A stretch of DNA of 64,000 nt from Oscillospiraceae bacterium (GCA_017430455.1 JAFRMX010000010.1:40777-104776), one strand, 5' to 3'; shown: positions 16,269 to 49,622, counted from the first letter of the stretch. Program-made: numbers and translations. Notes: a model not told the origin generated them from the sequence alone.

Positions 16269-18026
16269 TCAATTTGTGTAAATTATACAATTGGGGAGCA
16301 TATCCCGCAGGTACATTATGTCCTCTTCAGGGATCGGATTTCCTCCGATATAGAGATATCTGAGGTTCGTTAGCCCGCCGAGGCATTTTATGTCGCTGAC
16401 GAGATTATTCGATATGTCGACAGTCTCAAGCGAGGTCATGAGATTGAGAGGGCTTACGTCGGAGATCAGATTGTCCGAGAGATCGAGGGAATAGATCGGG
16501 GCTGTCACATAGGAAAAGACATATATATTCTCTATGCTGTTGCCCTCGAGATTGAGCACCCTGAGCTCCTTCAGTTCCTCAATGGGGCTGATGTCCTGGA
16601 GCCCTATGCGCGACGCGTCCACCTCGGTATCGGAGGAGCTGAACACCCTGGAGCCCAGAACGATCTGGAAATTCAGATCATCGTGCATTACAGCCGAGGC
16701 CGTTATCTGCGTCTTCAGCTTTTCCACGGCGCTTCCGGTCAGCGCGGGGTTGTCGAGTATGCTCAGTGTGAAGATACTGCTGTAGCCGTAAAAATAGGGA
16801 AGATCGGCATCCGTGAGGCCTGTCCCGTCCAGGGTGAGGACGGAGAGCTGCCTGAGCTTTCTGAAGGTGGAGAAGTTCGTGATCGGATTTCCGTTTAAGT
16901 GGAGCTCGCTCAGATTCGGAAGGCTGCCGAGAGCAGCCACGGACATGATGCCGTTCCCGTCGGCGTTGATGTTCTTAAGAGTGGTGAGCCCCATGAGAGG
17001 CCTTATGTCCGAAATGTTGTTGTATGAAATGTTGAGAGTCTCCAGCGTCGGGATATCCATGAGCGGGGTAAGGTCGTAGATCGCGTTGTACGCGAGGTTC
17101 AGATTTTTCAGATGTCTGCAGTTCGAAAGTGCCGAAATGTCCGAGATCCCGCATCCGGAAAGATCCAGGCTCTCCGAGGCAGAGGAAAAGCTTCTGCCGC
17201 CCAGAGTGATGTCAGAGGCCGCCTCCTCCGCCTTTTCGCTGTGAATGGAGCAGTCCGGAAGCGCATTCATAAGACTCTGGAGCTGGTGATCGGTGATGTT
17301 TATCCCCTTAACGCTGAGCGTTGTAAGGCCGCTGAGCGAATAAAGCGGGGAGAAATCCGCAATCGGGTTGTTGTCGAGATACAGGGTCCGGAGACCGGTC
17401 AGGGATGAGAGGGGACTCAGGTCGCCTATGGAGTTGTCCGAGAGGTTGAGAGTCCGAAGCCCGCCGAGAGATGAGAGAAAGCCTATATTCTGAATGTTGT
17501 TGTTCTCGAGCGACACGTTGCTCAGCGAGTAGAGCAGGCTGATATTCGAAAGGTCTGCATCCGTAAGGCCTCTGCTGCTCAGAAGCAGGCTCGTGGCATT
17601 TTTGGAGAACTTCTCTCCGGCAATCTCCACCATATCTGCAGCATTAGCCGCAGTGCGCCTCTCTTCAACCTCCGAAATGAGTTTGAGGGTGTCATAGTTT
17701 TCTGAGGAGACCTCTGTCAGGATCTCGATGGCCTTGTCGAACTCGCCCATCCTGCAGTAGCACTCGGAGAGCATGACGAGGCACTCGTCAGTCTCTTCAA
17801 GATCAGCGGCTTTTCTCAGCAGCGGCGCGGCTTCCTGATAATTCCCTGCGTCAAAGTATTCCTGCGCGCTCTGACGGAGATTCCTGTATTCACCGGATTC
17901 CGTCCTGTTGCGGACGATCGCGGCCGCAAGCACGATTATCAGGAGAAGTAGCACCGCGATCGCGCTGTATAAAATTTTTCTGATCGGTATGCCGAAAATG
18001 ATTCCCGGCGTCCTGTTCCCGTTCAT
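16269..18026 (-). CDS. Membrane-anchored leucine-rich-repeat protein with an N-terminal TPR-like region
   Basis: N-terminal TM segment, then about 20 tandem 22-residue LxxLxLxxNxIxDIxPL repeats. Confidence 0.8.
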   Translation of the reverse strand: MNGNRTPGIIFGIPIRKILYSAIAVLLLLIIVLAAAIVRNRTESGEYRNLRQSAQEYFDAGNYQEAAPLLRKAADLEETDECLVMLSECYCRMGEFDKAIEILTEVSSENYDTLKLISEVEERRTAANAADMVEIAGEKFSKNATSLLLSSRGLTDADLSNISLLYSLSNVSLENNNIQNIGFLSSLGGLRTLNLSDNSIGDLSPLSSLTGLRTLYLDNNPIADFSPLYSLSGLTTLSVKGINITDHQLQSLMNALPDCSIHSEKAEEAASDITLGGRSFSSASESLDLSGCGISDISALSNCRHLKNLNLAYNAIYDLTPLMDIPTLETLNISYNNISDIRPLMGLTTLKNINADGNGIMSVAALGSLPNLSELHLNGNPITNFSTFRKLRQLSVLTLDGTGLTDADLPYFYGYSSIFTLSILDNPALTGSAVEKLKTQITASAVMHDDLNFQIVLGSRVFSSSDTEVDASRIGLQDISPIEELKELRVLNLEGNSIENIYVFSYVTAPIYSLDLSDNLISDVSPLNLMTSLETVDISNNLVSDIKCLGGLTNLRYLYIGGNPIPEEDIMYLRDMLPNCIIYTN

Positions 18027-24740: not shown

Positions 24741-25598
24741 TCAATTGTAAATAATTCTTGTCTCGCCCGGGACATAATTCTCTGCCGTGAAATCTCCGTA
24801 TATCGCGCCGTTTTCGCTGTACAGCGATATCTTTTTCTCGGCTTTACCGCAGGTAAAAGACCAAGAGCCCGAAACAAGCCTGATGTCATTCTCCGCGTAT
24901 ACGCAACATGAGGTTCCGAGCGTTGTTTCAGTACATTTTCCGCAGGACAGATTCAGGTCCGAGCTTTCTGACATGAAAGATCTACATACTATACAGTACG
25001 GATAAGCTGCATCCCCGATCCCTGCGGATATCCTGCTCCCGGAAACCGAAAGATCTCCGTCACAGTATATGCAATAGCTTCCGCGGTCAGCGCTTACGGA
25101 TGAAAGCGAAAGACTGCTGTTTTTTATCTCAAGGTCTCCGGAACAGGCAATGCAACCGACAAGTTCGCATGTGCCGAGAGTATTGATCTCAAGCTTTCCT
25201 CCGCTTATCGACAGGCTTTTCTCCGCGTCGACGGCATAAGCGCTGCTACTGTCCGTATCCGTCTCCAGAGAGATGCTGTTTTCGGTCCCGGGACTCAGAA
25301 CAAGGGAGACATCATCCTTGAAATATATCCCGCAATTGCCCCTTATGACCAGATCCAGCCCGCTTAAAGTCAGTTCTTTTCCGTTTCCCGAATAATACTC
25401 GGATTCGAAAATCTCTCCGTCCGGACGGCCCTTGTGCAGGAAACCGTCTTCCGTGCTGTAGAAAAGCGCTGCGTCAGCGATCTGTGATCGGATCTGATCT
25501 TTATCTCCGCCTGTAATCTTTATCTCTGTTGTTTTCCCGCATGCGCACAGGGAAATGATTATTGCGCAAACAATTGTGAAAACGGCTGCTTTTTTCAT
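24741..25598 (-). CDS. Lipoprotein with beta-helix-like internal repeats, function unknown
   Basis: Signal peptide plus lipobox (IISLCACGK). Cys-rich repeats (LSISGG.LEI, LSVSGSRI). Confidence 0.7.
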   Translation of the reverse strand: MKKAAVFTIVCAIIISLCACGKTTEIKITGGDKDQIRSQIADAALFYSTEDGFLHKGRPDGEIFESEYYSGNGKELTLSGLDLVIRGNCGIYFKDDVSLVLSPGTENSISLETDTDSSSAYAVDAEKSLSISGGKLEINTLGTCELVGCIACSGDLEIKNSSLSLSSVSADRGSYCIYCDGDLSVSGSRISAGIGDAAYPYCIVCRSFMSESSDLNLSCGKCTETTLGTSCCVYAENDIRLVSGSWSFTCGKAEKKISLYSENGAIYGDFTAENYVPGETRIIYN

Positions 25599-26404
25599 TT
25601 CAGCTTCGAGCCGGCATAAACAGACGCGTCAAACAGTTCTTCCGAGATTCTTGAAAGCTGGTTGTACTTGACCAGGGCGGGGCCCTTCATTTCTCCCGCA
25701 TAATAAAACGGAGCATTTATTGCAACCGAGAGATCTGCCGTAAAGGTTTCATCAGTACAGTCTTTTGAGGCATCTATTGCTGCTGCGCATCCGCTTCTGA
25801 GCGCAACCGAAACAGCATCCAGGATACAGGTCAGGGTCGGATAATCGGAAGGTACAATGAAAGCTGTCTCCTCCTTTTCCTCATCTGTAACAGAAGCGAA
25901 GGCTTCTTTTCTGTCTTCATAATCAAAGCAGAGCTCCATTGCCTCATTCCAGTCATCTGCCTCTGCGGGTACAACAGCTCCGCTTTCACACAGCACAACC
26001 GGAACCGGAAGGGTTTTTGCGTTTACCCCTCCAATATAATTGTAAAGGCCCACTCCGCTGGCCTCCGCAGCAGCTTTTGCAACAGCAAGGGACGCACCGA
26101 GAACCGCACCTGTTCCGAGTCTCGAGCACTCTTTGGTTCCGTCTATCTCCAGCAGCATATTATCTATTGCCGTCTGATCGAGAGCATTGAGCCCCAGAAG
26201 GGCCTCCTGTATTTCCGTATTTATATTTTCGACAGCAAGACCGACTTTTTTCCCGCCTGTGCTCTCCTCAAATAGTGCTGCAGGCACTGCTGCTCTTCCG
26301 ACTGTTCCGTCATCCAGGGTTACTTCCGCTTCAAGAGCAGGGGCTCCGTTAAGGTCTGCTGTCTTCCTTGCCAGGACGTCAACGATTTCAAAATACTGTT
26401 TCAT
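25595..26404 (-). CDS. Truncated enolase-like protein (N-terminal domain and C-terminal helix only)
   Basis: 269 aa from the ATG with a GGAGG RBS (MKQYFEIVDVLARK...). It aligns by eye with the window's true enolase over the N-domain (LGTGAVLGASLAVAKAAAEASGVGLYNYIGG) and over the C-terminal KYNQLSRISEEL. The central barrel is missing. Confidence 0.7.
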   Translation of the reverse strand: MKQYFEIVDVLARKTADLNGAPALEAEVTLDDGTVGRAAVPAALFEESTGGKKVGLAVENINTEIQEALLGLNALDQTAIDNMLLEIDGTKECSRLGTGAVLGASLAVAKAAAEASGVGLYNYIGGVNAKTLPVPVVLCESGAVVPAEADDWNEAMELCFDYEDRKEAFASVTDEEKEETAFIVPSDYPTLTCILDAVSVALRSGCAAAIDASKDCTDETFTADLSVAINAPFYYAGEMKGPALVKYNQLSRISEELFDASVYAGSKLK

Positions 26405-26583
26405 GGATCTGCCTCCGTCCGAACTTTTTATCATTATGAAGTATAAAATCGCCTTTGTCATGTGTCAAGCTCAGATGCTCTGTTTTTTTGTATATATTGT
26501 ATAAATTGTATAATAATGCTCCTTTTTCTTTAGTGTCATTTAACGATTTTATTCATATTGTACAAATAAGTGTGTTTTGCGTG

Positions 26584-33756: not shown

Positions 33757-33866
33757 AGTTTTCTGCTTTCGTAATACATTTAGTCAGAGTATATAAAGTA
33801 TATATTATGATGTTTGAATCAAAAAGCAACATTAAATTTGTAAACATTATAAATTTACGCAAAACA

Positions 33867-33900
33867 AGAAGCTGTGTTCAGTACGAAGAACACAGCTTCT
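33867..33900 (-). terminator. Terminator hairpin ending the dehydratase-like operon
   Basis: AGAAGCTGTGTTC / GAACACAGCTTCT 13-bp arms, followed on the minus strand by TGTTTTG. Confidence 0.65.
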
Positions 33901-33918
33901 TTCCGGCATATTCGGAGA

Positions 33919-34086
33919 TCAAAGATAATACTTGCGCTCCATGGAATCGTAGTGCTTTATGAAAAGCGGCTCCAGGAGAGACGTCGCCTTCATATCCAGA
34001 TTGAAGAAATAGACCGTAAAGGTAACTGCAAACAGCGCAAATACAGCCAGAAAAACTTTAAGAATTATCTTTCCTATTAATTTCAT
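33919..34086 (-). CDS. Small membrane protein (55 aa), unknown function
   Basis: MKLIGKIILKVFLAVFALFAVTFTVYFFNLDMKATSLLEPLFIKHYDSMERKYYL. AGGAGC RBS. It starts 14 nt after the upstream stop. Below the ORF-track length cut-off. Confidence 0.55.
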   Translation of the reverse strand: MKLIGKIILKVFLAVFALFAVTFTVYFFNLDMKATSLLEPLFIKHYDSMERKYYL

Positions 34087-34100
34087 TATTTGCTCCTATA

Positions 34101-35669
34101 TTACCAGGATTTTTCATCTGGCAGATTTTCAAGGCTCGGATCGATCGGCTCTTCGTTCATGACCGTTCTCAAGAAATTGTTGATCTGATCGCGCACCCCC
34201 TGCCTGGAGACGATTCTGGGATCAAACAGATCGTGGCCGACCCATACCAGAGGAATGCCTTTTTCTCTTGCCTTCTCCTCGAACTGCCCGTGCATACCGT
34301 TGAGAGCCTTGCAGCTCTGGTGCTCCCAGAGGATTACCATGTCAGCATTGAACTGCTCGACATACTCCCAGAGCTCGTCCAGAAGAACCTTGTAGCCGCC
34401 GTGCGTGCGGTTTCTCATGATCATATTCTCGGTCAGCCAAGCCATATCGTAGTAGGCTGTTTCACGGTTTTCGGGAGTATCCTCAGTCACAAGCTTTCTT
34501 GTCGAAACCATGGAGAGCATGTCTGTAAGAGGAACTATGCCCCAGCAGTTAACAAGCCACACGAGGAAATCAAAATAATAGTGAGACTGTACGCCCCAGA
34601 TAATCGCACGGTGCCTGTACTGCGGTACCATCTTCAGTTTCTTGTCATAGGCACGTCTTGCAAGCTCGGTTATCTTTCTGTCCGCTTTTTCAAAATCCAC
34701 GACCTTGCCGCAGATAGCCATATAGTTTGTCTCTGTATAAAGAGCCAGATTTCCGCCGAACACCTGCGGGTAATCGGTGCGGTTCATCTCAAGCCATTCC
34801 TGCCTGCACTCTGTCGCGTAATTCACACGCTTTGCACACTCGAAATAGTAGTCCCAATCCCATTTCTCCCCGGTATGCTCTTCTATGAATGCAATTGCAT
34901 TCTTTATTTCGCCCGCTGCATAGTCCTGAACGTCATCCTCTCTGTGACGCAGAGGCGCCGCCAGCTGGAATACAGGGATACCGTCCACGTTTATAAGCCT
35001 GCGGGATATTACTCCGTTTGAAAGGAGCGACCCGTCGCAGGTGGTGTTGCACTGTACAGCGCATTTACCGAGTATAGGCGCGTCGTCATCTATGGAGATA
35101 CCCGCTTCAGCCTCAGGCATAGGGCAGACATCAGGCGCCAGTCCCTGGAGCTGAGCGACATCAATATAGTGCTCCATCGAATGCTGGTTCAGCAGAACCG
35201 GTACATAGGTCGATATGGTTTCCCTGGAAAGACCTTTCAGCGTCTTGAAGCCCATCATCACTGCTGTCATCTCGTTTTCATCTACGAGAACGACCTTATC
35301 CGAATACTTCTTGTCGTTTCCGATCCTTTTGTCCCCTCTGAAAACCTTGTCGAGCAGAAGTCCGATATCTTTGAATACGGTATCATATTCTTCATGCATT
35401 ATGCGAAGATACTCGCCTCTGAGTCCCTGAGAAAAACGGTCGAGCATCATAGGAGACGCCAGGTAGTTCGCCATCCAGCGATAGCGGAACATAGCCTTTA
35501 TATTGCGTGGCTTGACAATAAATTTTGCAAGGACGGACATTGTCCCGAGCCAGCGCCAGTAATCGTAAAGCGTATCCGATACTCCGCGCCACTCGCGTCT
35601 TTTTCTGACTTTACCGTCTGTATAAAGTTTTCCAAGCTCATTGTCGCCGACTCTTAACTTCTCTGCCAT
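34101..35669 (-). CDS. 2-hydroxyacyl-CoA dehydratase / benzoyl-CoA reductase (BcrC/BadD/HgdB) family protein, large subunit-like
   Basis: 522 aa. Family-typical Cys contexts (DVCPMPEAEAG, CAVQCNTTCDGS, HQSCKALNG). The ATG overlaps the upstream stop (ATGA). Confidence 0.7.
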   Translation of the reverse strand: MAEKLRVGDNELGKLYTDGKVRKRREWRGVSDTLYDYWRWLGTMSVLAKFIVKPRNIKAMFRYRWMANYLASPMMLDRFSQGLRGEYLRIMHEEYDTVFKDIGLLLDKVFRGDKRIGNDKKYSDKVVLVDENEMTAVMMGFKTLKGLSRETISTYVPVLLNQHSMEHYIDVAQLQGLAPDVCPMPEAEAGISIDDDAPILGKCAVQCNTTCDGSLLSNGVISRRLINVDGIPVFQLAAPLRHREDDVQDYAAGEIKNAIAFIEEHTGEKWDWDYYFECAKRVNYATECRQEWLEMNRTDYPQVFGGNLALYTETNYMAICGKVVDFEKADRKITELARRAYDKKLKMVPQYRHRAIIWGVQSHYYFDFLVWLVNCWGIVPLTDMLSMVSTRKLVTEDTPENRETAYYDMAWLTENMIMRNRTHGGYKVLLDELWEYVEQFNADMVILWEHQSCKALNGMHGQFEEKAREKGIPLVWVGHDLFDPRIVSRQGVRDQINNFLRTVMNEEPIDPSLENLPDEKSW

Positions 35670-36868
35670 CAGTCAGCACCTCCTCTGATCTTTTTGATCT
35701 CTATGCTTTCGACAAAAGCCTGTACACGCGTCCTCATCTGCCCTACGGAGGACTTTATGTTATACGGTCTGTCAACTGACAATACCGGATAGTCGTAGTC
35801 CTCGTGCAAAATATGTGAACCCAGCATCCTCTCATATGCCCATGGGTCACAGAATTTGATCTGCTGGTATATTATGCCGTCTGCGTCATACTCTTTCGCG
35901 AGTTTGTTGACATACTCGCGTCTGCCGTTCATTGTCGGAGTATCCATCATTCTCGGGCACTGGCATCTGGTCATATACCGGCGGCAGATCTGGGTGAGAG
36001 CATCCTCGTCATCGGTTAAAACTATCGGATCCCTTCCGGGCAATGAACCGTAGCAGAAACGGTCGGCACATACATATGCTCCAGAGTCTTCTATCAGCTT
36101 TATAAAGTATTCGTCATCCGCTTCGCTTCCGACCACAAGTACTCTTGCCCGTGCCTCTCCTTCTTTCATCGGTTCGCGCGTTTTGAGTTCTTCGAGCGTC
36201 TCCTCAAGTTTGCCTATAAGCATATCCTTCGGAGCGACATATGTACAGAGCGTGATAACATGGAACTCATAGCCGGTTATAGCTGGAGTCCTTCCTTTTC
36301 TGAATTCCCCTATAGCTCTGATGAGCTCGCAAGCCCTGTTGTGCCTTGCAACAGCTTCTCTTATAGAGGCATCCGAAACATCTATGCCGTAATTCTCGCT
36401 GAGAGGTTTCAGTATATGGTTTTTGCACTGCGTTACATAGAGCTTGAGGCCGTTGTCATCAGCCTTCATCGGAATCTCCATGTAATCGTAGAAAAATTTC
36501 TCCTTATCGGCAGCGACGGCGTTTAGCAGCTCCATATTCTCGATGCAGCGGTTCATCATGGTGCAACCGTCGGGCGTAATCAGTCCGTCAAGGTGGTTGT
36601 AGCCGCCCTCTATCGCTCTCTCAAGCAGGCTGCGGCTGTATTCGCACAGAAGATTTGTGAGATAATAGGTTCCGACCTCGGTTGAACCGGTGTTGGGCGC
36701 GCGGAGACGTGTCGAGAAAGCATTGCCGATATTCAACAGCGGCTCAGGAACATTCTCACAGGCATAGCCTATGCAAATTTTCCCGTCTTTCTGCGCCTGC
36801 CTGATCAATTCATTGTTTGCAGACTGGAGAAGGTTTTCAAAGTAAATAAGATGCTTTAAATCCTTCAT
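35669..36868 (-). CDS. 2-hydroxyacyl-CoA dehydratase / BcrC/BadD/HgdB family protein, small subunit-like
   Basis: 399 aa. CIGYACENVPEPLL, DGCTMMNRC and KFCDPWAYE motifs, as in HgdB/HadC-type subunits. Confidence 0.75.
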   Translation of the reverse strand: MKDLKHLIYFENLLQSANNELIRQAQKDGKICIGYACENVPEPLLNIGNAFSTRLRAPNTGSTEVGTYYLTNLLCEYSRSLLERAIEGGYNHLDGLITPDGCTMMNRCIENMELLNAVAADKEKFFYDYMEIPMKADDNGLKLYVTQCKNHILKPLSENYGIDVSDASIREAVARHNRACELIRAIGEFRKGRTPAITGYEFHVITLCTYVAPKDMLIGKLEETLEELKTREPMKEGEARARVLVVGSEADDEYFIKLIEDSGAYVCADRFCYGSLPGRDPIVLTDDEDALTQICRRYMTRCQCPRMMDTPTMNGRREYVNKLAKEYDADGIIYQQIKFCDPWAYERMLGSHILHEDYDYPVLSVDRPYNIKSSVGQMRTRVQAFVESIEIKKIRGGAD

Positions 36869-36910
36869 GCATTGCTCCTTACATAAAAATATATTGATTA
36901 TTTACGCCGG

Positions 36911-36943
36911 GAGATCGCCGCAGAGGGCCTCTGCGGCGATCTC
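36911..36943 (-). other. Very stable GC-rich hairpin between the oxidoreductase and dehydratase genes
   Basis: GAGATCGCCGCAGAG-GGC-CTCTGCGGCGATCTC (15-bp perfect stem). No U tract on the transcribed strand. Confidence 0.7.
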
Positions 36944-36955
36944 AACGTTATTGTG

Positions 36956-39733
36956 TTATTTGCGAAGCTCAGCAGCCTTTTTCCTTGCGATCTTGATAGA
37001 TCTCTGAGCTTCCCACTTCGCCATTTCGACATACTTCTGGCTCTCATCCTTCATTGTAGAGCACTCGGGACGGATCCTGGAGAGATGGATAGCGTCAAAC
37101 TCGCACTTGGTCGTACAGATTCCGCAGCCTATGCACTTGTTCTGGTCTACTACGCTTCTGCCGCAACTTAAGCATCTCGAAGCTTCAGCTTTGATCTGTT
37201 CTTCCGTGAATGTCTTGCGCTCGTCATGCATAGAGAGGACCTTCTCCGGGTCTATAGCATGTATCTGTCTTGCAGGCTTTTTGATCTTCTCGGGCGGAAG
37301 AACGATATTGTTCTTGTCGAGCTCCGTAAACACCCTGGTGTTGCGGTGTATCGTCAGGCTCTGGCCCTTGTTGACGAAACGGTGTATGGAGACCGCGCCT
37401 TCACGCCCGTTCGCGATGGCGTCAATGGTGTACATAGGACCAGTCGCTATATCTCCGCCGACAAAGATGTCGGGCTCGGCAGTCTGGAATGTGACCTTGT
37501 CACATGCGATAAGCTTTCCGTCCTGGGCATCGACCTTCGATCCGTCGAAGATCCCGCAGTACTCGCTTCTCTGGCCTATGGAGACGATAACGTTGGAGCA
37601 TTCGACAGTTATCGTATCGTTCTCATCATATACCGGAGCAAATCTTCCGGATGCGTCTCTTACACTGAGGCATTTCTTGAATTCCACGCCGGTGACTTTG
37701 CCGTCTTCCCCGAGTATGACCTTCGGACCCCAGCCGTTGTTTATCAGAACACCGTCTTCAATACCTGAATTCTTTTCCTCCGGCACAGTCGGCATATCGT
37801 CGAACTGCTCAAGGCAGTACAGATACACTTTTCCGTTCCCGAGACGTCTGGCTGTACGTGCAGCGTCGATAGCTGCATTACCTCCTCCGACTATAACGGT
37901 GTCGCCTTTGAGCTTCGGCGCCTTTCCTGCGTTGACGTCTCTGAGAAGATCCAGGCTGCCGTAGACGCCCTTGAGATCCTCACCTTCGACATTGAGCTTA
38001 AGAGCCTTCTGAAGACCGACAGCTACATAGAACGCCTTGTAGCCTTCATCTCTCAGCTGCTGGAGAGTGATATCTTTTCCCACTTCAACTCCGCATCTGA
38101 ACTCAACACCCATCTGCTTCAGGACATCTATTTCCGATCTGACAACGTCCTTCTCAACACGGAAGTTCGGCATGCCGTTTATCATCATTCCGCCGGGTTC
38201 CTTCTCTTTTTCGAATACTACCGGCTTATAGCCTTCTATAGCGAGGAAGTATGCGCAGCTCATGCCTGCGGGGCCTCCGCCTATGATTGCAATCTTCTGC
38301 TCGAAGGGAGCTCTGGTGCAGGAGAGCATCGGCGGGATGTAGCGGTGTTCGTCCTTCATATCCTGTTCGGATATGAATTTCTTGATCTCATCGATAGAGA
38401 GCGCTTCATCGACAGTTCCGCGGGTACACGCGTCTTCGCAGTATTTGCGGCAGATGCTTCCGCAGACCGCGGGGAACGGGTTATCCTTCTTGATGAGCTT
38501 GAGAGCATCCTTGTACTTGCCCTTAGCTGCCATGTCTATATAGCCCTGGATCGCGATATGCGCGGGACATGCGACCTTGCAGGGAGCTGTGCCTGTCGGC
38601 CAGGTCTGGATGCATCCGTTTTCATTTCTGTAATTCTTATTCCATTTTTTCTCACTCCAGACAGTATCATCCGGCAGCTCGTGCTTCGGATATTCGATCT
38701 CTCCTTCGGTCGTGCAGAGCTTCTGTCCAAGTCTTACGGCACCCGCCGGGCAGGTCTCGACACATTTGCCGCAGGCGACGCACTTTGTCGGGTCGCTCTC
38801 GGCTGCATACGCCGATCTCGAGAGGTTCGGAGTGTTGAAAAGCTGGGATGTCCTGAGCGCGTTGCAGACACCGACAGCGCAGTTGCAGATTGCAAAGATC
38901 TTGTCCTGTCCGTCAATATTTGTGATCTGATGGACATAGCCCCTGTCCTCTGCCTTCTGAATGATCTCCATGGCCTCATCATAGGTAAGATCGCGCCCGT
39001 GTCCTGTCTCGCGGCAGTAATCCGCAAAATCGCCTACTCCTATGCACCAGTCAGCCTCAATATCTCCGGAACCCTCGTTGCGGATACGCTGCTGCTTCCT
39101 GCAGGAGCAGACCGATACGCCTATCTGACCTTCATATTTTTTGAGCCAGTATGAGATATGCTCGATATCAAGAGACTGGTTCTCCGCAGGGATCGCTTTC
39201 TCGACCGGAATGACGTGCATTCCGATCCCTGCGCCACCGGGAGGCACCATCTGCGTAAATCCGGCCAGCGGTTCATACGCCATGCGTTCGAAGAAGTCTG
39301 CCGTCTCCGGGAACATATCGCCGTGCTCCGGATTGATCATCATCAGCTCCGCGGATCCGGGAACAAAGATGTCGAGCATCCAGCGCTTCTCATGGTTCGG
39401 GTTTTTGCCGTCATTGTTTTCGTAGTGGTACTCGAGAAAACTTGATACACTTGCAGCATCAAGCGCTTTCTCAAGTCTTGCTTCATCCCACTGCGGGTTC
39501 TTTTCCTTCAGCTGGGCAAACGTAAGCGGTTTTCTGCGTTTACCGAAGGACAGGCACACATCCAGAACATCATCTGCCGTCTGTCTGTCATACTTATACT
39601 CTGCAAATTTCAGACCGGAATTGATCCCGACGTATTCCCAGGACTTCTTGTCCATCTTCTGAAGCCCTGTCGAATGGAATACGACATCCGTCATCATCTT
39701 TGCAAGCTTAAGCATTTTTTCGTCTCTTGTCAT
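36956..39733 (-). CDS. Multidomain Fe-S flavoprotein: Cys-motif N-module, ferredoxin domain, GltD/NfnB-like NAD(P)H-FAD oxidoreductase, C-terminal 2x[4Fe-4S] domain
   Basis: 925 aa. CSCRKQ...CNCAVGVC, CVACGKCVETCP, CPAHIAIQGY...CGSICRKYCEDAC, IAIIGGGPAGM, VIVGGGNAAIDAA, CLSCG...CIGCGICTTKC. Confidence 0.8.
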   Translation of the reverse strand: MTRDEKMLKLAKMMTDVVFHSTGLQKMDKKSWEYVGINSGLKFAEYKYDRQTADDVLDVCLSFGKRRKPLTFAQLKEKNPQWDEARLEKALDAASVSSFLEYHYENNDGKNPNHEKRWMLDIFVPGSAELMMINPEHGDMFPETADFFERMAYEPLAGFTQMVPPGGAGIGMHVIPVEKAIPAENQSLDIEHISYWLKKYEGQIGVSVCSCRKQQRIRNEGSGDIEADWCIGVGDFADYCRETGHGRDLTYDEAMEIIQKAEDRGYVHQITNIDGQDKIFAICNCAVGVCNALRTSQLFNTPNLSRSAYAAESDPTKCVACGKCVETCPAGAVRLGQKLCTTEGEIEYPKHELPDDTVWSEKKWNKNYRNENGCIQTWPTGTAPCKVACPAHIAIQGYIDMAAKGKYKDALKLIKKDNPFPAVCGSICRKYCEDACTRGTVDEALSIDEIKKFISEQDMKDEHRYIPPMLSCTRAPFEQKIAIIGGGPAGMSCAYFLAIEGYKPVVFEKEKEPGGMMINGMPNFRVEKDVVRSEIDVLKQMGVEFRCGVEVGKDITLQQLRDEGYKAFYVAVGLQKALKLNVEGEDLKGVYGSLDLLRDVNAGKAPKLKGDTVIVGGGNAAIDAARTARRLGNGKVYLYCLEQFDDMPTVPEEKNSGIEDGVLINNGWGPKVILGEDGKVTGVEFKKCLSVRDASGRFAPVYDENDTITVECSNVIVSIGQRSEYCGIFDGSKVDAQDGKLIACDKVTFQTAEPDIFVGGDIATGPMYTIDAIANGREGAVSIHRFVNKGQSLTIHRNTRVFTELDKNNIVLPPEKIKKPARQIHAIDPEKVLSMHDERKTFTEEQIKAEASRCLSCGRSVVDQNKCIGCGICTTKCEFDAIHLSRIRPECSTMKDESQKYVEMAKWEAQRSIKIARKKAAELRK

Positions 39734-39786
39734 GTTTAACCCTCCTAAATCATGATCGTATATATTTATGTTAATGCCTTCCGTTT

Positions 39787-40146
39787 TTACTGTCCCTCTT
39801 CATCGGGGACCGCGATTTCTTTGATGATATACTCGTTTCCCGTCTCCAGCCAGGTATTCTCGCTCTTGCAATACGGACATATCTTGGCATATTTTACTGT
39901 CTCATATGTTTTGCCGCAGTTTCCGCACCTTGTGACCGCCTTAAGTTCTTCAACCTTCAGCTCTGCTCCGGACAGGTGCTTTTCTTTTTTCACCGCCCAT
40001 TCCCAAAAGTCTGTAAGATAGCTCGGGATGATTCCGCTGACCTCACCTACCTGTACTTTTACGTAGAGAACCTTATCAATGTTGTTTTCCTCACACAGCT
40101 TGTTGACAGTGTCTATTATATAAACAACCGTACCCATTTCGTGCAT
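39787..40146 (-). CDS. hypA: HypA/HybF-family nickel metallochaperone
   Basis: 119 aa from the internal ATG. N-terminal MHE nickel motif and zinc site CGNCG...CPYCKS. GGAGGTG RBS. The 5' extension in the track was rejected. Confidence 0.8.
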   Translation of the reverse strand: MHEMGTVVYIIDTVNKLCEENNIDKVLYVKVQVGEVSGIIPSYLTDFWEWAVKKEKHLSGAELKVEELKAVTRCGNCGKTYETVKYAKICPYCKSENTWLETGNEYIIKEIAVPDEEGQ

Positions 40147-40194
40147 AATCAAACACCTCCGATAAATCCTAATCAGGCACAAATTTACATATAA

Positions 40195-40241
40195 AATATA
40201 CCATTCAGACAGTTGTCTAACAATTCGCTTTATGATACAAT
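40195..40241. promoter_or_regulatory. Divergent overlapping promoters (hypA operon and LysR gene) sharing a palindromic operator
   Basis: Minus strand: TTGTTA (40223-40218), 17-nt spacer, TATATT (40200-40195). Plus strand: TTGTCT (40213-40218), 17-nt spacer, TGaTACAAT (40233-40241). Palindrome AGACA-GT-TGTCT at 40207-40218. Confidence 0.55.
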
Positions 40242-40280
40242 CTATTCGCAAACGGAATAGAAGGAGGTTGTTTCCTCTTT

Positions 40281-41165
40281 ATGGAAATACAGTATATTTT
40301 CGAATTTCTCGAGCTTGCCAAAACACGCAGCTTCAGCGAGACCGCCTCCAAACTGTACATTTCCCAGTCCAGCCTGTCAAAACACCTCATTCTGCTTGAG
40401 GAAGAGGTCGGAGCCGTTCTGTTCGACCGAAATTCCCGGAATGTCTCATTAAGCGACTACGGAAAGCTATATCTTCCATATGCCCGCAGAATGTGGTCGC
40501 TGTACAGAGAGTCTCTGTTAAGAGTGGAAAGGGAGAAGGCCGGGCGCAGCAGGAACATCTCCATCGCGTTCATACAGGATTCTCACCACTACAACGTCAG
40601 CGGGATCCTTTTTGCCTTTAAAAAAGAATATCCGGATTATTCCGTCAATGTTCTGGAGGTGAGTGAGGAAGAAGAGCTGAGGCTGTTTCGCGAGAGGAAG
40701 ATCAATCTTATAGGCGTATCCGTTTCATCCGGCGAAAAAACGGGATACGATTTTATCCCTCTCGGCAAGAGCCGGATAGTCGCTGTATTCCCTGACGGGC
40801 ATCCGCTCTTCGGGAAGGAAAGTGTCAAGGCCTCCTCGCTTGCAGGGGAGCCGCTCATTCTTCCGAGCAGGAGTATGAAAGTCTTTAAGATCATAACCGA
40901 TGCCATAAAGAGCGGGCGTGAGAAAATTAAGCCGAACATAGTATTCGAGGGAAGCCCCGAATCGTGCATGCAGTTTGCTTCTGAAGGCATGGGCATTTTG
41001 CTGCAGCCGCTGGATGTTATCGAATCCTTTGGGAAAAACACAGTTTATTCGGAGCTCGAGCCGAAGATCGAGCTGTTCTACGGCCTCGGGTACAGGGATT
41101 ATCAGCTGTTGAGCGAAGGCGAAAAGCTCCTCGTGGATTTCAACAGACAATTCATATACAGCTGA
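40281..41165 (+). CDS. LysR-family transcriptional regulator
   Basis: N-terminal HTH (FLELAKTRSFSETASKLYISQSSLSKHL) and a C-terminal substrate-binding domain. Confidence 0.9.
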   Translation: MEIQYIFEFLELAKTRSFSETASKLYISQSSLSKHLILLEEEVGAVLFDRNSRNVSLSDYGKLYLPYARRMWSLYRESLLRVEREKAGRSRNISIAFIQDSHHYNVSGILFAFKKEYPDYSVNVLEVSEEEELRLFRERKINLIGVSVSSGEKTGYDFIPLGKSRIVAVFPDGHPLFGKESVKASSLAGEPLILPSRSMKVFKIITDAIKSGREKIKPNIVFEGSPESCMQFASEGMGILLQPLDVIESFGKNTVYSELEPKIELFYGLGYRDYQLLSEGEKLLVDFNRQFIYS

Positions 41166-41188
41166 AATATTATCATGTCAAATGATCG

Positions 41189-41250
41189 AACCGCCCGTCC
41201 GGACCGCAATTTCAGCCTTAAAGCTGACCGCGGTGAAAGGGCGGTTTTTT
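41189..41250 (+). terminator. Terminator (long-loop hairpin with T tract)
   Basis: AACCGCCC ... GGGCGGTTTTTT. Confidence 0.55.
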
Positions 41251-41340
41251 AGTTTTACTTTTTGGGGGATTTATGATAGTATCGATACAGGTTAAAGAGG
41301 GTTATGACTTTTAAACTATTAATCTACAGGAGGGTAATGC

Positions 41341-44106
41341 ATGTCAGGCAAGAACATAACCGATACGACCGAAGTATTCAATATGCCGGTGGAAGGTCCG
41401 GTAAGGGAGAAAATACTTAAGCTGGCACAGAAGATAACGGACCGCAAAGCTAAAGTAAAGCCGGGAGATCCGGACTACTACGGTGTCGCGGCAATGGTTC
41501 CGACAGATGAAATGGCGGATATCTGTCTCAGAATGAAACTTCGTACTCCGTATAATTTCGAAGCTATGAAGAAAATGAACCCGGATATTCCTGAGGACCG
41601 CCTTAAAAGCGATCTTAAGACAATGCTGGACAACGGCATACTTGAGTTTTCCTACATAAACCCCGAGAACGAAAAGCAGTACTGCCTGCCTGTGTTTGTA
41701 ATGGGCAGCGCGGAGTACTCCAACATGAATGTCGAACTCATGCAGGAACATCCTGAAGTAGCGAGATTCTTTGAAAGAATGACATTCCTTCCGCTCACGA
41801 TCGTCAATCAGATGGTGCCTCCCGGAGGGGCCGGGATCGGAATGCATGTCATTCCCGTAGAAAAAGCCATTCCCGCAAATGCCGATTCTATCGACATTGA
41901 GCATATCAGCCACTGGCTCGACAAATGGGACAGGATGGCTGCCGCTCCCTGCTCCTGCAGAATGGGCAGAAAGCTTCTCGGTGAAGGTGACAGCGACGAT
42001 CCGAACGACTGGTGTCTGGCTATGGGCCCTGTCGCGGACTATATAGTCGAATGCAAAAAAGGCGGCCGTTACATTTCGAAAGATGAAGCTCTTGAGATCC
42101 TTCAGAAAGCGGAAGACAACGGATATGTCCATCAGATAACCAATATGGACGGTCCAGACAAGATAATCGCGATCTGCAACTGCAACCCGGATATCTGCAA
42201 TGCGCTCAGAACGAGCCAGCTGTTCAATACTCCGAACCTCTCCAGAAGCGCGTATGTCGCGCATGTTGACGCCGAAAACTGCGTTGCCTGCGGAAGATGC
42301 GTGGAATACTGCCCGGCAGGCGCCGTGAAACTCGGCCAGAAGCTCTGCACCAGCGAAGGGCCTGTCTGTTATCCGAAGCACGAGCTTCCCGACGACTCTA
42401 TCTGGTGGGGTCAGGATAAGTGGGACTTTGATTACCGCGACAACAACCGTATCAACTGCTATGATACCGGAACCGCTCCCTGCAAGACGGCATGTCCCGC
42501 GCACATAGCGATCCAGGGCTATCTGAAAATGGCCTCTGAAGGGCGCTATACCGAAGCTCTTGCATTAATAAAGAAAATGAATCCCTTCCCCGCTGTATGC
42601 GGAAGCATATGCAACAAGAGATGCGAGGATGCCTGCACGAGAGGCGACGTCGACAAAGCTCTTGCGATAGACGATATCAAGAACTTCATAGCCCGCAGGG
42701 ATATCGATTCCGAGACCCGCTACATTCCTCCTGTTATAAAAGCCAAGGTCAGAGGAAACTTTGAAGAAAAGATAGCCATTATCGGAGCAGGCCCCGCAGG
42801 CATGACTGCTGCATATTTCCTTGCAACAGCAGGCTTTGTGAATGTCACGGTCTTCGATAAGAACCCGGTTCCCGGCGGAATGCTGATGACAGGCGTCCCC
42901 AGCTTCAGACTGGAAAAGGATGTTCTCAATGCCGAGATAGACGTATTGAAGCAGCTCGGCGTTGAATTCAGATGCGGCGTTGAAGTAGGAAAAGACATTA
43001 CGATCCAGCAGCTCAGAGATGAGGGCTATAAAGGCTTCGCAGTCGCGATCGGTGCCCAGAAGGGCCAGAAACTCGGCATTCCGGGTGAAGATCTGGAGAA
43101 CGTATTCTCCGGAGTCGATTTCATGAGAGCAGTAAATCTCGGAAACGCTCCCGCGCTCGGTAAGAAGACGATCGTCGTTGGAGCAGGCAATGTCGCCATG
43201 GACGCATGCCGTTCGGCTGTCCGTCTCGGAGCGGATACCACTGTTGTCTATCGCCGTACCGAAAATGAGATGACCGCCTCCAGGGAGGAATATGAAGATG
43301 CCCTGTCGGAAGGAATAAAATTCCGTTTCCTCGCCGGTCCTGTCGAGATCGTCGGGAAAGACGGCAAAGCCTCCGGTCTCAAAGTCGAGATCATGGAACT
43401 CGGAGAGGCCGATGAAAGAGGCCGCAGAAAACCCGTCGGAACAGGAGAATTCGAGATTATCGAAGCAGATTCCGTTATATCTGCCATCGGTCAGGCAATC
43501 GACTGGGGCAACCTCGATACCGGTGCTCTGGAAAAAGACAGAAAGAATGTTGCCCAGAGAGAGGATCTCACCCTCCAGTCTGCTCAGGAAGATATCTTTG
43601 TCTGCGGCGACTGCGGCGGAACAAGATTCGCCATTGAGGCTATCGCTCAGGGCCATGAAGCCGCGATCTCTCTTCAGAGATATGTCACCGGAGGTCATCT
43701 GACTATAGGGCGCAACCGCCGTGATTTTATAGAGCTGAATAAGGAAGATGTGGTCCTGCCTGTCGAAAGTCTTAATAAGCCTGAGCGCCAGGTACCGCAC
43801 AGAGATCCCATAAAGGCAATGACATTCTCCGACGAGCGTCTCCCGTTCACTGAGGAACAGGTAAAGCTCGAGACCTCCCGCTGCCTTGGCTGCGGAGCCT
43901 CCGTCGTCGATGAAAACAAATGTATCGGCTGCGGCATCTGCACTACCAAGTGCGAGTTCGACGCTATACATCTCTTCCGCGAGCATCCCGAGTGCTCAAC
44001 TATGATCGCCTCCGAAAAGAAGATCCCGCCTATCCTCGGAAACTTCGTAAAGAAGGCCGGAAGGATAACCGTAAAGAAGGTAAAGGAAAAAGTCAGCCGG
44101 AGATAA
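41341..44106 (+). CDS. Multidomain Fe-S flavoprotein, paralogue of 36956-39733
   Basis: 921 aa with the same domain order and motifs (CSCRMG...CNCNPDIC, CVACGRCVEYCP, IAIIGAGPAGM, VVGAGNVAMDA, CLGCG...CIGCGICTTKC). Roughly two-thirds identical to the paralogue by eye. Confidence 0.8.
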   Translation: MSGKNITDTTEVFNMPVEGPVREKILKLAQKITDRKAKVKPGDPDYYGVAAMVPTDEMADICLRMKLRTPYNFEAMKKMNPDIPEDRLKSDLKTMLDNGILEFSYINPENEKQYCLPVFVMGSAEYSNMNVELMQEHPEVARFFERMTFLPLTIVNQMVPPGGAGIGMHVIPVEKAIPANADSIDIEHISHWLDKWDRMAAAPCSCRMGRKLLGEGDSDDPNDWCLAMGPVADYIVECKKGGRYISKDEALEILQKAEDNGYVHQITNMDGPDKIIAICNCNPDICNALRTSQLFNTPNLSRSAYVAHVDAENCVACGRCVEYCPAGAVKLGQKLCTSEGPVCYPKHELPDDSIWWGQDKWDFDYRDNNRINCYDTGTAPCKTACPAHIAIQGYLKMASEGRYTEALALIKKMNPFPAVCGSICNKRCEDACTRGDVDKALAIDDIKNFIARRDIDSETRYIPPVIKAKVRGNFEEKIAIIGAGPAGMTAAYFLATAGFVNVTVFDKNPVPGGMLMTGVPSFRLEKDVLNAEIDVLKQLGVEFRCGVEVGKDITIQQLRDEGYKGFAVAIGAQKGQKLGIPGEDLENVFSGVDFMRAVNLGNAPALGKKTIVVGAGNVAMDACRSAVRLGADTTVVYRRTENEMTASREEYEDALSEGIKFRFLAGPVEIVGKDGKASGLKVEIMELGEADERGRRKPVGTGEFEIIEADSVISAIGQAIDWGNLDTGALEKDRKNVAQREDLTLQSAQEDIFVCGDCGGTRFAIEAIAQGHEAAISLQRYVTGGHLTIGRNRRDFIELNKEDVVLPVESLNKPERQVPHRDPIKAMTFSDERLPFTEEQVKLETSRCLGCGASVVDENKCIGCGICTTKCEFDAIHLFREHPECSTMIASEKKIPPILGNFVKKAGRITVKKVKEKVSRR

Positions 44107-44175
44107 TCAACTCTATATTAAAAGGACCCTGTGTAAAAAGCAGGGTTCTTTTGCTGATTTATAAAGGAGCAAAAC

Positions 44176-45601: not shown

Positions 45602-46030
45602 ATGACACATGAAGAAAGAGCTTTGAACTGTGATCACCAGTGCAGTACATGTGCTGACAACCCTGCCTTAAAATCGGGGCTTTTAAAGCGCTGGCCGATA
45701 CGCCTGAGCCTTCTTGGCGCTGCAAACTGCATCCCATACAATTCGGACATTCTGATTGCTGCAGACTGCACTGCTTTTGCCTGTGCAGATTTTCAGGACG
45801 AATACATAAAGGACCGGCTGACAATAATAGTATGCCCCCTCTTGGAAGAAAGCGAAGCTAAGCTCTCAGAGATCTTCGGGGATAATGAGATAAGAAGTAT
45901 AACAGTTGCCAGGATGAGTTCCATATGCTGCAACAAGCTTTCCGCCTCTGTGAAGGCCGCTGTTGCCAAAAGCGGAAGGATACTGCCTGTGCAGACAGTT
46001 ACAATAGATCCCTCCGGAGAGGTTATTTAA
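45602..46030 (+). CDS. Cysteine-rich hypothetical protein (possible Fe-S protein)
   Basis: 142 aa. CDHQCSTC near the N-terminus, plus DCTAFACADF, VCP and ICC. Starts 11 nt after the GT4 stop. Confidence 0.5.
   Translation: MTHEERALNCDHQCSTCADNPALKSGLLKRWPIRLSLLGAANCIPYNSDILIAADCTAFACADFQDEYIKDRLTIIVCPLLEESEAKLSEIFGDNEIRSITVARMSSICCNKLSASVKAAVAKSGRILPVQTVTIDPSGEVI

Positions 46031-48299: not shown

Positions 48300-49622
<1,323 letters not shown>

Follow-up and report, generated by a model that had tools for sequence, protein, structure and literature searches.

The superfamily of the benzoyl-CoA reductases (BCR), the double-cubane proteins and the 2-hydroxyacyl-CoA dehydratases carries out some of the hardest reductions in biology, and substrates are known for only a handful of its members. 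In BzdN, the ligands of the [8Fe-9S] double cubane are C36, C73, C100, C263, C293 and C327, whereas the 2-hydroxyacyl-CoA dehydratases have lost this cluster (PMC11971306). Here we describe a gene cluster of an Oscillospiraceae bacterium, located in a stretch of 64 kb (GCA_017430455.1, JAFRMX010000010.1:40777-104776; hereafter the window), which encodes two proteins of this superfamily (399 and 522 aa), a 55-aa peptide, a 925-aa Fe-S flavoprotein with a 921-aa paralogue, and HypA. An earlier note on this DNA had read it as a LysR-controlled cluster in which the flavoprotein might take the place of the usual ATP-dependent activator.

The flavoproteins resemble IsrA of Acetobacterium wieringae, a putative nickel-dependent isoprene reductase (Kronen et al. 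2023, PMC10134865). It is a protein of 901 aa which has sites for NADH and for FAD, canonical [4Fe-4S] clusters in two pairs and a Cys6 site that holds two CxC motifs (C180/182 and C254/256). According to the authors' proposal, nickel is bound at the Cys6 site and dienes are reduced there. Homologues of about 900 aa in clade 9 co-occur with hypA (0.73), hypB (0.56) and TetR (0.21). HGD-family neighbours are not reported for the 988 IsrA homologues of that study, which contains no mention of dehydratase or benzoyl (PMC10134865). The component families of the cluster are already known, and the IsrA family and its link to HypA were published in 2023 (PMC10134865).

On balance, we read the locus as probably consisting of two anaerobic reductase modules which are separable but kept together by selection: an enzyme charged by an activase (module 1) and an IsrA-type reductase (module 2). 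The open reading frames (ORFs) of the cluster, checked at positions 33919-44106, are all present where the earlier note had placed them (Table 1), and its family assignments (an HGD/BCR/double-cubane pair, GltD-like Fe-S flavoproteins, HypA) hold. The window was compared with a set of 80 loci from one-genome-per-species assemblies, 42 of which have full flanks (at least 6 kb on both sides). The closest genome match is L005 (Ruminococcaceae bacterium RUG14730, 98% identity), and the same species block recurs in several independent metagenome assemblies. An E. coli origin was rejected, as megablast of the region gave no match in any complete E. coli genome. The hosts are fermentative Clostridia from rumen and gut.

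Both enzyme subunits match the Pfam profile HGD-D (PF06050), with 285 bits for the 399-aa and 126 bits for the 522-aa protein (cut-off 28.4). The closest solved structure to the 399-aa protein is BzdN (8s02_B, E 4.9e-26), followed by DCCP and HadC. In a HMMER alignment, C37, C75, C102, C272, C304 and C340 pair with the six double-cubane ligands of BzdN; none of the six varies among 82 family members, a set that takes in paralogues of 44-56% identity. Since the dehydratases have lost this cluster, the 399-aa subunit is of the reductase (BCR/DCCP) type; it is predicted to bind an electron-storing [8Fe-9S] double cubane.

The 522-aa protein is, by the same kind of comparison, much more diverged from its solved relatives. 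A single-sequence search of the PDB returned only MbdO (3.6e-6), while a profile built from 17 family members matched DCCP (7.8e-8), MbdO (1.2e-7), BzdO (1.1e-6) and HadB (2.9e-4). Its invariant C182, C211 and C453 fit the three-cysteine pattern of the catalytic proximal [4Fe-4S] cluster of BzdO and HadB, and C211 sits in a TTCDG motif that is common to DCCP. Two further invariant or near-invariant cysteines, C203 and C375, have no counterpart in BzdO. These five are the only conserved cysteines of the protein, a pattern unlike that of the six-cysteine DCCP subunit. The protein also carries a basic and aromatic N-terminal extension of about 150 aa. We predict that it is the catalytic subunit.

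Because the 399-aa subunit has the six BzdN cysteines and the 522-aa subunit resembles BzdO, MbdO and DCCP, the pair looks like a BzdNO-type reductase module rather than a dehydratase. The six conserved double-cubane cysteines speak against a 2-hydroxyacyl-CoA dehydratase, as do the very low scores of the HadB and HadC models (22 and 81 bits, for cut-offs of 750 and 700). Of the NCBIfam models, double_cubane (NF040772) fits the 399-aa protein best, with 139 bits for a cut-off of 350; the same model gives 34 bits on the 522-aa protein. The benzoyl-CoA reductase models TIGR03190 and TIGR02263 score 95 bits (cut-off 454) and 60 bits (cut-off 421), and no benzoyl-CoA reductase model of NCBIfam matched the 522-aa protein. 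With every equivalog score this far below its cut-off, the pair is, as judged from these models, an uncharacterised subfamily outside every named enzyme.

Among rumen and gut Clostridia, members of this subfamily are very common and highly conserved. In a word-indexed search with the 399-aa protein, the 8,000 candidates sharing most words were scored and all of them matched; the 120 matches listed span identities of 73-99% and belong to several bacterial families. The same protein gave no plasmid match, and plasmid carriage of the enzyme was dismissed. The 522-aa gene follows the 399-aa gene in 79 of the 80 loci. In some of these loci (L011, L012, L027, L052, L054, L060-L062, L068, and also L072, L078, L080 and L082), tandem paralogous sets of the 399-aa, 522-aa and peptide genes adjoin a trio of the window type. 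The tandem paralogues are 44-52% (399-aa) and 29-37% (522-aa) identical, and one type is followed by a conserved 90-aa zinc-ribbon protein with a double CxxC motif and no Pfam match.

The third member of the trio is the 55-aa peptide, which matches no Pfam family. Its gene was found in 71 of the 80 loci and in 40 of the 42 with full flanks (tblastn, matches over at least half the length), directly 3' of the 522-aa gene, or of the activase gene where there is one. The 77 distinct variants found at this position consist of a variable hydrophobic helix followed by a conserved FNLDMK..EP..KHYD motif. On this conservation, the ORF is a real gene and a conserved third component of the enzyme, and its single hydrophobic helix suggests a single-pass membrane tether. 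We know of no characterised member of the superfamily that has one.

The activator is where our reading departs most from the earlier note. The local absence of an activator ATPase and of a CoA-transferase, which it had pointed out, is confirmed over the whole 64 kb: Pfam scans of the large ORFs that are likely genes found no BcrAD_BadFG activase, CoA-transferase or CoA-ligase, and tblastn of the window with a bona fide activase and a CoA-transferase gave only hits with E>0.9, and a hidden copy in the window was dismissed. The window has no benzoate-pathway genes either. The clustering of neighbouring ORFs of the 80 loci, on the other hand, brought up a 265-aa protein which scores as a canonical activase (Pfam BcrAD_BadFG 196 bits; TIGR00241 215 bits, cut-off 125). 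Its gene lies between the 522-aa and peptide genes in seven loci of the Lachnospiraceae type (L049, L065, L069, L071, L073, L081, L083), among which L081 is Butyrivibrio fibrisolvens 16/4, where the full cluster including the activase is found. In L028, which is of the Oscillospiraceae type, the activase gene follows the peptide gene. Compared with the window's enzymes, those of these eight loci show 69-72% identity for the 399-aa and 61-78% for the 522-aa subunit.

A look-up of highly similar activases gave further operons (L089-L104 and L182), whose enzymes are 61-75% identical to the window's. Two operon types are seen, with enzyme identities of 62-75%: CooT / CooC-like / 399 / 515 / activase / peptide / CdhC-like, and CooC-like / 400 / 521 / activase / peptide / CdhC-like / TetR / ABC pair. 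In Pseudobutyrivibrio sp. MD2005 (GCA_000621865, L087:9128-11663), a module made of CooC-like, activase, 52-aa peptide and CdhC-like genes stands with no HGD gene within 10 kb; the small peptide travels there with the activase in the absence of the enzyme pair. A metagenome scan with a fragment of the Oscillospiraceae-type activase yielded about 50 contigs of at least 6 kb, in most of which the activase adjoins paralogous enzyme pairs, whose identity to the window proteins is 44-61% for the 399-aa and 30-61% for the 522-aa subunit. It is evident that these bacteria possess several enzyme sets, one of which has the activase attached to it. An activase encoded elsewhere in the genome is thus an observed configuration, as shown by the unlinked module of MD2005 and by the activases beside paralogous pairs, and it is most likely the one used by the window enzyme.

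The flavoprotein is present in all eight activase loci of the first locus set. Since the two co-occur, activase and flavoprotein are not alternatives. The proposal that the flavoprotein replaces the activator, and with it the different mode of priming that the earlier note had suggested, is not supported, given orthologues, 61-78% identical, which hold a canonical activase inside the operon; activator-independent priming is disfavoured for this lineage. More generally, a locus that lacks an activator gene is no evidence for activator-independent chemistry.

We assign both flavoproteins with high confidence to the IsrA family, by comparison with the published description of IsrA. They are about 900 aa long and have a Fer4_20 domain with a FAD/NAD(P) core and two extra ferredoxin motifs. 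Fer4 lies at ~305-332 and ~861-882, Fer4_20 at 373-461 and Pyr_redox_2 at 477-776, and the two proteins, which are 52% identical over their full length, share this architecture and the Cys6 set. Residues ~370-790 match NAD(P)H/FAD/[4Fe-4S] modules of the NfnB type (8oh5_C, 2.6e-88; NfnI 5jca_L, 1e-61). No Pfam family covers the first ~300 aa. The cysteines C209, C211, C230, C283, C285 and C290 of this domain are invariant across 32 aligned homologues, and the spacing between the two CxC motifs (C209/C211 and C283/C285) is 74 residues, the same as in IsrA, with a constant offset of +29. A library-wide HMMER search found the domain in 311 clusters at 50% identity (E<=1e-10). Its AlphaFold model has a confidence (pLDDT) of 71.5, falling below 50 past residue 295, and no structural identity could be assigned, since no PDB fold matched at E<0.001 and the only hits were winged-helix-like fragments with E of at least 0.06.

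Members of the IsrA family usually occur with HypA or HypB and without an HGD gene (PMC10134865), and the flavoprotein is for that reason not a generic electron donor. Among the loci fetched, the 921-aa paralogue adjoins the cluster only in the window's species. It is 57% identical to the flavoprotein of a HypB-flavoprotein-HypA unit (L185) at 193411-197227 of the Subdoligranulum variabile plasmid OY725877.1, which has no HGD gene nearby. This unit indicates that the IsrA-like module can be plasmid-borne. OY725877.1 itself is a mobilizable plasmid of 267 kb with almost no annotation.

The linkage of enzyme, flavoprotein and hypA that the earlier note had remarked on is conserved: flavoprotein and HypA are found within 10 kb of the trio in 22 of the 42 full-flank loci, though the order and orientation of the genes vary. 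The flavoprotein gene may directly precede the trio on its strand, lie upstream but on the other strand, or come downstream, behind the peptide or CdhC-like gene. Because the linkage persists through such rearrangements across Oscillospiraceae, Lachnospiraceae and other lineages, it argues for functional coupling; because each module also occurs alone, the coupling is facultative. The recurrence of the species block in independent assemblies, together with the conservation of the linkage across families, indicates that the arrangement is not due to chance. An apparent fusion of flavoprotein and enzyme, P0147 (521 aa, on three contigs), was rejected as a natural protein. It joins residues 1-255 of the flavoprotein to the 399-aa protein from residue ~131 onward at a shared MEI, and is probably a deletion or assembly artefact, but it confirms that the two genes are adjacent in the organism it comes from.

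Genes for nickel chaperones accompany both modules, HypA and HypB with the flavoprotein, and CooT and CooC-like proteins with the enzyme operon. The HypA of the window scores 101.9 bits with the Pfam HypA profile (cut-off 28.9) and 66 bits with the NCBIfam equivalog TIGR00100, below the cut-off of 88. Its sequence (MHEMG...CGNCG...CPYC) has the N-terminal MHE nickel site and two CxxC zinc motifs. HypA adjoins the flavoprotein in 33 of the 37 loci that have a flavoprotein, which agrees with the 0.73 reported for the IsrA homologues (PMC10134865). A bona fide HypB (TIGR00073, 248 bits) is encoded in 17 of the 80 loci and TetR in 12; there is no hypB in the window.

In two sets of loci (L089:4021-9730, also L090-L098; L099:4371-9717, also L100-L104), the enzyme operon has no flavoprotein and is flanked by CooT, a CooC-like ATPase and a CdhC-like protein. 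CooT scores 58 bits (cut-off 27), and the CooC-like protein is a MinD-type ATPase with a GCYC motif. The CdhC-like protein, of 235 aa, corresponds to the middle part of acetyl-CoA synthase, has a C-terminal CxxCx5C motif and is encoded after the peptide gene. This suggests that nickel handling attaches to the HGD/activase module itself, and not to the IsrA-like protein alone.

An ATP-binding cassette (ABC) exporter pair lies directly downstream of the minus-strand operon. Homologues that are 54-59% identical are directly downstream of the trio in L015, L017 and L018, and further ABC pairs follow the activase-containing operons L099-L103, sometimes with a TetR regulator. This position is kept in both the Oscillospiraceae and the Lachnospiraceae versions, and the pair is possibly linked in function to the operon even though it lies beyond a terminator-like hairpin. 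That hairpin starts 18 bp past the stop codon of the 55-aa ORF. The intergenic gaps on the minus strand range from -1 to 87 bp (the 522-aa and 399-aa genes overlap by 1 bp), and with this tight spacing and a single terminator-like hairpin the minus-strand genes appear to be co-transcribed.

As for regulation, a LysR gene occurs near the trio in only 3 of the 42 full-flank loci, and TetR is the commoner neighbour elsewhere. LysR was rejected as a conserved regulator on this count, and the LysR control of the cluster assumed in the earlier note is at most something we infer. A perfect dyad, AGACA-GT-TGTCT (40207-40218), overlaps promoter-like hexamers and is a candidate regulator site; a repeat finder run on the hypA/lysR region reported neither this dyad nor a longer one. 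Linkage to a CoA-transferase was likewise set aside. An acetyl-CoA hydrolase/transferase-family gene is found 3-5 kb downstream in eight loci, but these are near-identical (87-99%), so that such neighbours are not independent evidence and are treated as shared synteny.

In the reading that we favour, module 1 would be a three-part enzyme of the BCR/double-cubane/2-hydroxyacyl-CoA-dehydratase superfamily. The double cubane of the 399-aa subunit would accumulate electrons for a difficult reduction at the 522-aa subunit, whose [4Fe-4S]-type active site would include two extra conserved cysteines, and the 55-aa peptide would tether the complex to the membrane. As in the characterised relatives, it would be charged by an ATP-hydrolysing ASKHA activase (BcrAD_BadFG), whose gene would lie outside the window and probably adjoins a paralogous enzyme set or belongs to a module of CooC-like, activase, peptide and CdhC-like genes. 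In module 2, electrons would flow from NAD(P)H to FAD, through a chain of [4Fe-4S] clusters and on to the N-terminal Cys6 metal site, putatively nickel-containing and matured by HypA. This module would itself be a terminal reductase of a poorly activated unsaturated substrate. Both probably act on the same class of lipophilic, poorly activated unsaturated compounds, the ABC exporter often being alongside and TetR-type regulators elsewhere, and electrons may be exchanged between them.

Several points weigh against this reading. IsrA has never been purified, and its catalytic role and nickel content are proposals based on proteogenomics (PMC10134865). The 522-aa subunit has no obvious equivalent of His131, which in BzdO forms the catalytic acid/base pair with Glu65: in the low-scoring alignments with MbdO and BzdO there is no histidine three residues past the aligned cysteine, and the invariant C203 and C211 are found there instead. 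With its extra cysteines, its chemistry may thus differ from a Birch-type reduction. The locus data point to no particular substrate, nor to a CoA thioester. The flavoprotein is missing in about half of the loci, so that the coupling is facultative. Finally, no activase is encoded in the 64 kb window, which is the part of the genome that was searched, and L028 is the only locus with an activase among those of the Oscillospiraceae type which have the flavoprotein directly upstream; this leaves room for an activase-free lineage.

One alternative follows the earlier proposal: in this lineage no activase would be needed, and the IsrA/NfnB-like flavoprotein would draw low-potential electrons from NAD(P)H, possibly by flavin-based bifurcation, and hand them straight to the subunit with the double cubane. 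The genes appear co-transcribed, the flavoprotein core is closest to bifurcating modules of the NfnB type (bifurcation being putative here), and an activase is lacking both in the window and within 10 kb in most Oscillospiraceae-type loci with an upstream flavoprotein. We nevertheless consider this improbable, because closely related orthologous enzymes (70-78% identical) have an activase in the operon, every activase locus of the first set (8/8) has the flavoprotein as well, and about half of the genomes have the trio without a flavoprotein. It would also be hard to understand why a mere donor belongs to a family which mostly occurs without HGD genes and with nickel chaperones of its own. The flavoprotein could alternatively be a dedicated NAD(P)H-linked donor to the activase, replacing ferredoxin or flavodoxin in a single reductase system, in which electrons would pass through an activase encoded elsewhere to the BzdNO-like enzyme. 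A double-cubane reductase does need a stoichiometric supply of electrons, and dedicated donor oxidoreductases are found in class I BCR systems; the IsrA phylogeny includes the GltD/NfnB-like KGOR-alpha of Azoarcus among the relatives (PMC10134865), and the linkage is kept across rearrangements. Simple electron transfer, however, explains neither the Cys6 N-domain nor the association with HypA and HypB; moreover, the IsrA homologues are mostly unlinked to HGD and activase genes (PMC10134865), and the activase operons L089-L104 have no flavoprotein. Such a donor role seems rather unlikely to us.

That the two modules are mere neighbours, brought together by shared regulation or by a mobile island with no functional connection, is what one might conclude from the many genomes in which each stands alone and from the absence of HGD-D among the top neighbours of the 988 IsrA homologues (PMC10134865). 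We give this very little credit: the linkage survives changes of order and strand in Oscillospiraceae, Lachnospiraceae and other lineages, the window genes are tightly spaced with one terminator-like hairpin, and nickel-chaperone genes accompany both modules.

A further reading can be formulated, which we regard as a long shot. Trio and flavoprotein would form a nickel-dependent, membrane-tethered system that hydrogenates or isomerises unactivated C=C bonds of lipophilic compounds in rumen and gut Clostridia, with those steps in the biohydrogenation of polyunsaturated fatty acids to which no gene has been assigned as a candidate role. The IsrA-like enzyme would reduce a conjugated diene (e.g., conjugated linoleic acid) to a monoene, the BzdNO-like enzyme would act by a radical step on a double bond that is isolated or bis-allylic, and the extra cysteines of the 522-aa subunit would help to form a Ni-[4Fe-4S]-type site there. 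None of the pointers to this scheme is decisive. IsrA-type enzymes are proposed to reduce conjugated dienes, and an Acetobacterium IsrA homologue adjoins an oleate hydratase (PMC10134865); the linoleate isomerase of Butyrivibrio is described as membrane-bound and unstable (PMC12254105), and B. fibrisolvens 16/4 holds the full cluster. To these can be added the recurring membrane peptide, TetR regulators and ABC exporters, and the CooT and CooC-like genes beside the flavoprotein-free operons.

Table 1. Features of the cluster and its flanks, in window coordinates.
Feature	Position	Strand	Remarks
hypA	39787-40146	-	119 aa from ATG at 40146; first gene of minus-strand operon
925-aa IsrA-like Fe-S flavoprotein	36956-39733	-	Fer4, Fer4_20, Pyr_redox_2, Fer4
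399-aa BzdN/DCCP-like HGD-D protein	35669-36868	-	HGD-D 285 bits
522-aa BzdO/MbdO-like HGD-D protein	34101-35669	-	HGD-D 126 bits, residues 155-500 only
55-aa membrane peptide ORF (putative tether)	33919-34086	-	one hydrophobic helix
Terminator-like hairpin closing minus-strand operon	33866-33901	-	14-bp stem; consensus match only
hypA/lysR divergent intergenic region, 134 bp	40147-40280	.	promoter-like hexamers, both strands
LysR-family regulator	40281-41165	+	HTH_1 + LysR_substrate domains
921-aa IsrA-like flavoprotein, second copy	41341-44106	+	52% identical to 925-aa protein
Heterodimeric ABC exporter pair, 583 + 645 aa	30084-33756	-	ABC_membrane + ABC_tran domains
Hairpin after 921-aa gene	44119-44153	.	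terminator-like

Other genes of the window were noted in passing. At 24741-26461 (-), a 288-aa ORF has a complete Enolase_N domain, whereas of Enolase_C it keeps no more than the final ~80 residues. After it come a 285-aa ORF without a Pfam match, a type III pantothenate kinase and an energy-coupling factor (ECF) S-component. The window has a normal enolase gene at 48312-49622, and the 288-aa ORF may be a truncated or repurposed enolase paralogue. Further uncharacterised genes of the window encode a DUF1846 protein (3599-5095 (+), 605 bits), a 585-aa protein with tetratricopeptide (TPR) and leucine-rich repeats (16269-18026 (-)) and a 142-aa protein of the AF_0155 family beside a GT4 glycosyltransferase (45602-46030 (+)).

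Searches of the literature on HypA/HypB, dehydratase/BCR enzymes, Butyrivibrio and biohydrogenation found no paper on the enzyme family or on its link to IsrA. The BzdNO-like pair with its membrane peptide, and its coupling to the IsrA-like enzyme, appear to be undescribed so far, as do the CooC/CooT/CdhC-like and HypA/HypB accessories, the extra cysteines of the catalytic subunit and the recurring ABC exporter pair. The subfamily differs from the characterised members of its superfamily by the membrane-anchor peptide, the nickel-chaperone genes and the acetyl-CoA synthase-like fragment, and about half of the examined genomes pair the enzyme with an IsrA-type flavoprotein, a proposed reducer of unactivated dienes. 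Its abundance in gut and rumen bacteria and the nickel theme make it a worthwhile target. Once its substrate is identified, a major and so far uncharacterised redox system of gut and rumen microbes would have a function, and such work might also bring to light a metal site that is new for the enzyme family.

Among known systems, the best solved-structure relatives of both window subunits are BzdNO/MbdNO with BzdPQ (PDB 8s02, 9g87; PMC11971306). The window pair keeps the six BzdN double-cubane cysteines and the BzdO three-cysteine pattern, and, as in the Bzd systems, orthologous operons encode a BcrAD_BadFG ATPase. The similarity is however low (E 5e-26 to BzdN and 1e-6 to BzdO, phmmer/hmmsearch), the orthologous operons have one activase gene instead of a BzdP/BzdQ pair (the window has none), and the window enzyme adds the 55-aa membrane peptide, the 150-aa N-terminal extension, C203 and C375. 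Unlike the Bzd systems, it has no clear His131 equivalent and no benzoate-pathway or CoA-ligase genes, and it is found in fermentative rumen and gut Clostridia with nickel-chaperone genes nearby.

DCCP with its ATP-dependent reductase DCCP-R (PDB 6eno, 7yyl; PMC7317905) provides the best NCBIfam model for the 399-aa protein and the best profile match for the 522-aa protein, and DCCP, too, depends on an ASKHA reductase. Both subunits of the DCCP homodimer hold a double cubane, whereas the window enzyme would be a heterodimer with the six ligands in one subunit only. The dehydratases HadBC/HadI, HgdAB/HgdC, FldBC and LcdAB share the Pfam family HGD-D, the two subunits and the ASKHA activator; in contrast to them, the 399-aa protein keeps the double-cubane cysteines, no CoA-transferase is nearby and the HadB and HadC scores are very low.

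On the flavoprotein side, NfnB/StnC-type modules (PDB 5jca_L, 8oh5_C, 9n5u_A) match residues ~370-790 (2.6e-88 to 1e-61); they have neither the N-terminal Cys6 domain nor the association with HypA that the window flavoproteins show. The isrA-hypA-hypB-fdx-hypA operon of A. wieringae ISORED-2 (PMC10134865) has the same flavoprotein architecture, Cys6 site and hypA adjacency. As for IsrA, hypB and TetR are frequent neighbours in the related loci, although the window itself has no hypB and no IsrA-N-domain ferredoxin. The isr operon contains no HGD/BCR-family genes, and these are what the window sets beside an IsrA-like flavoprotein.

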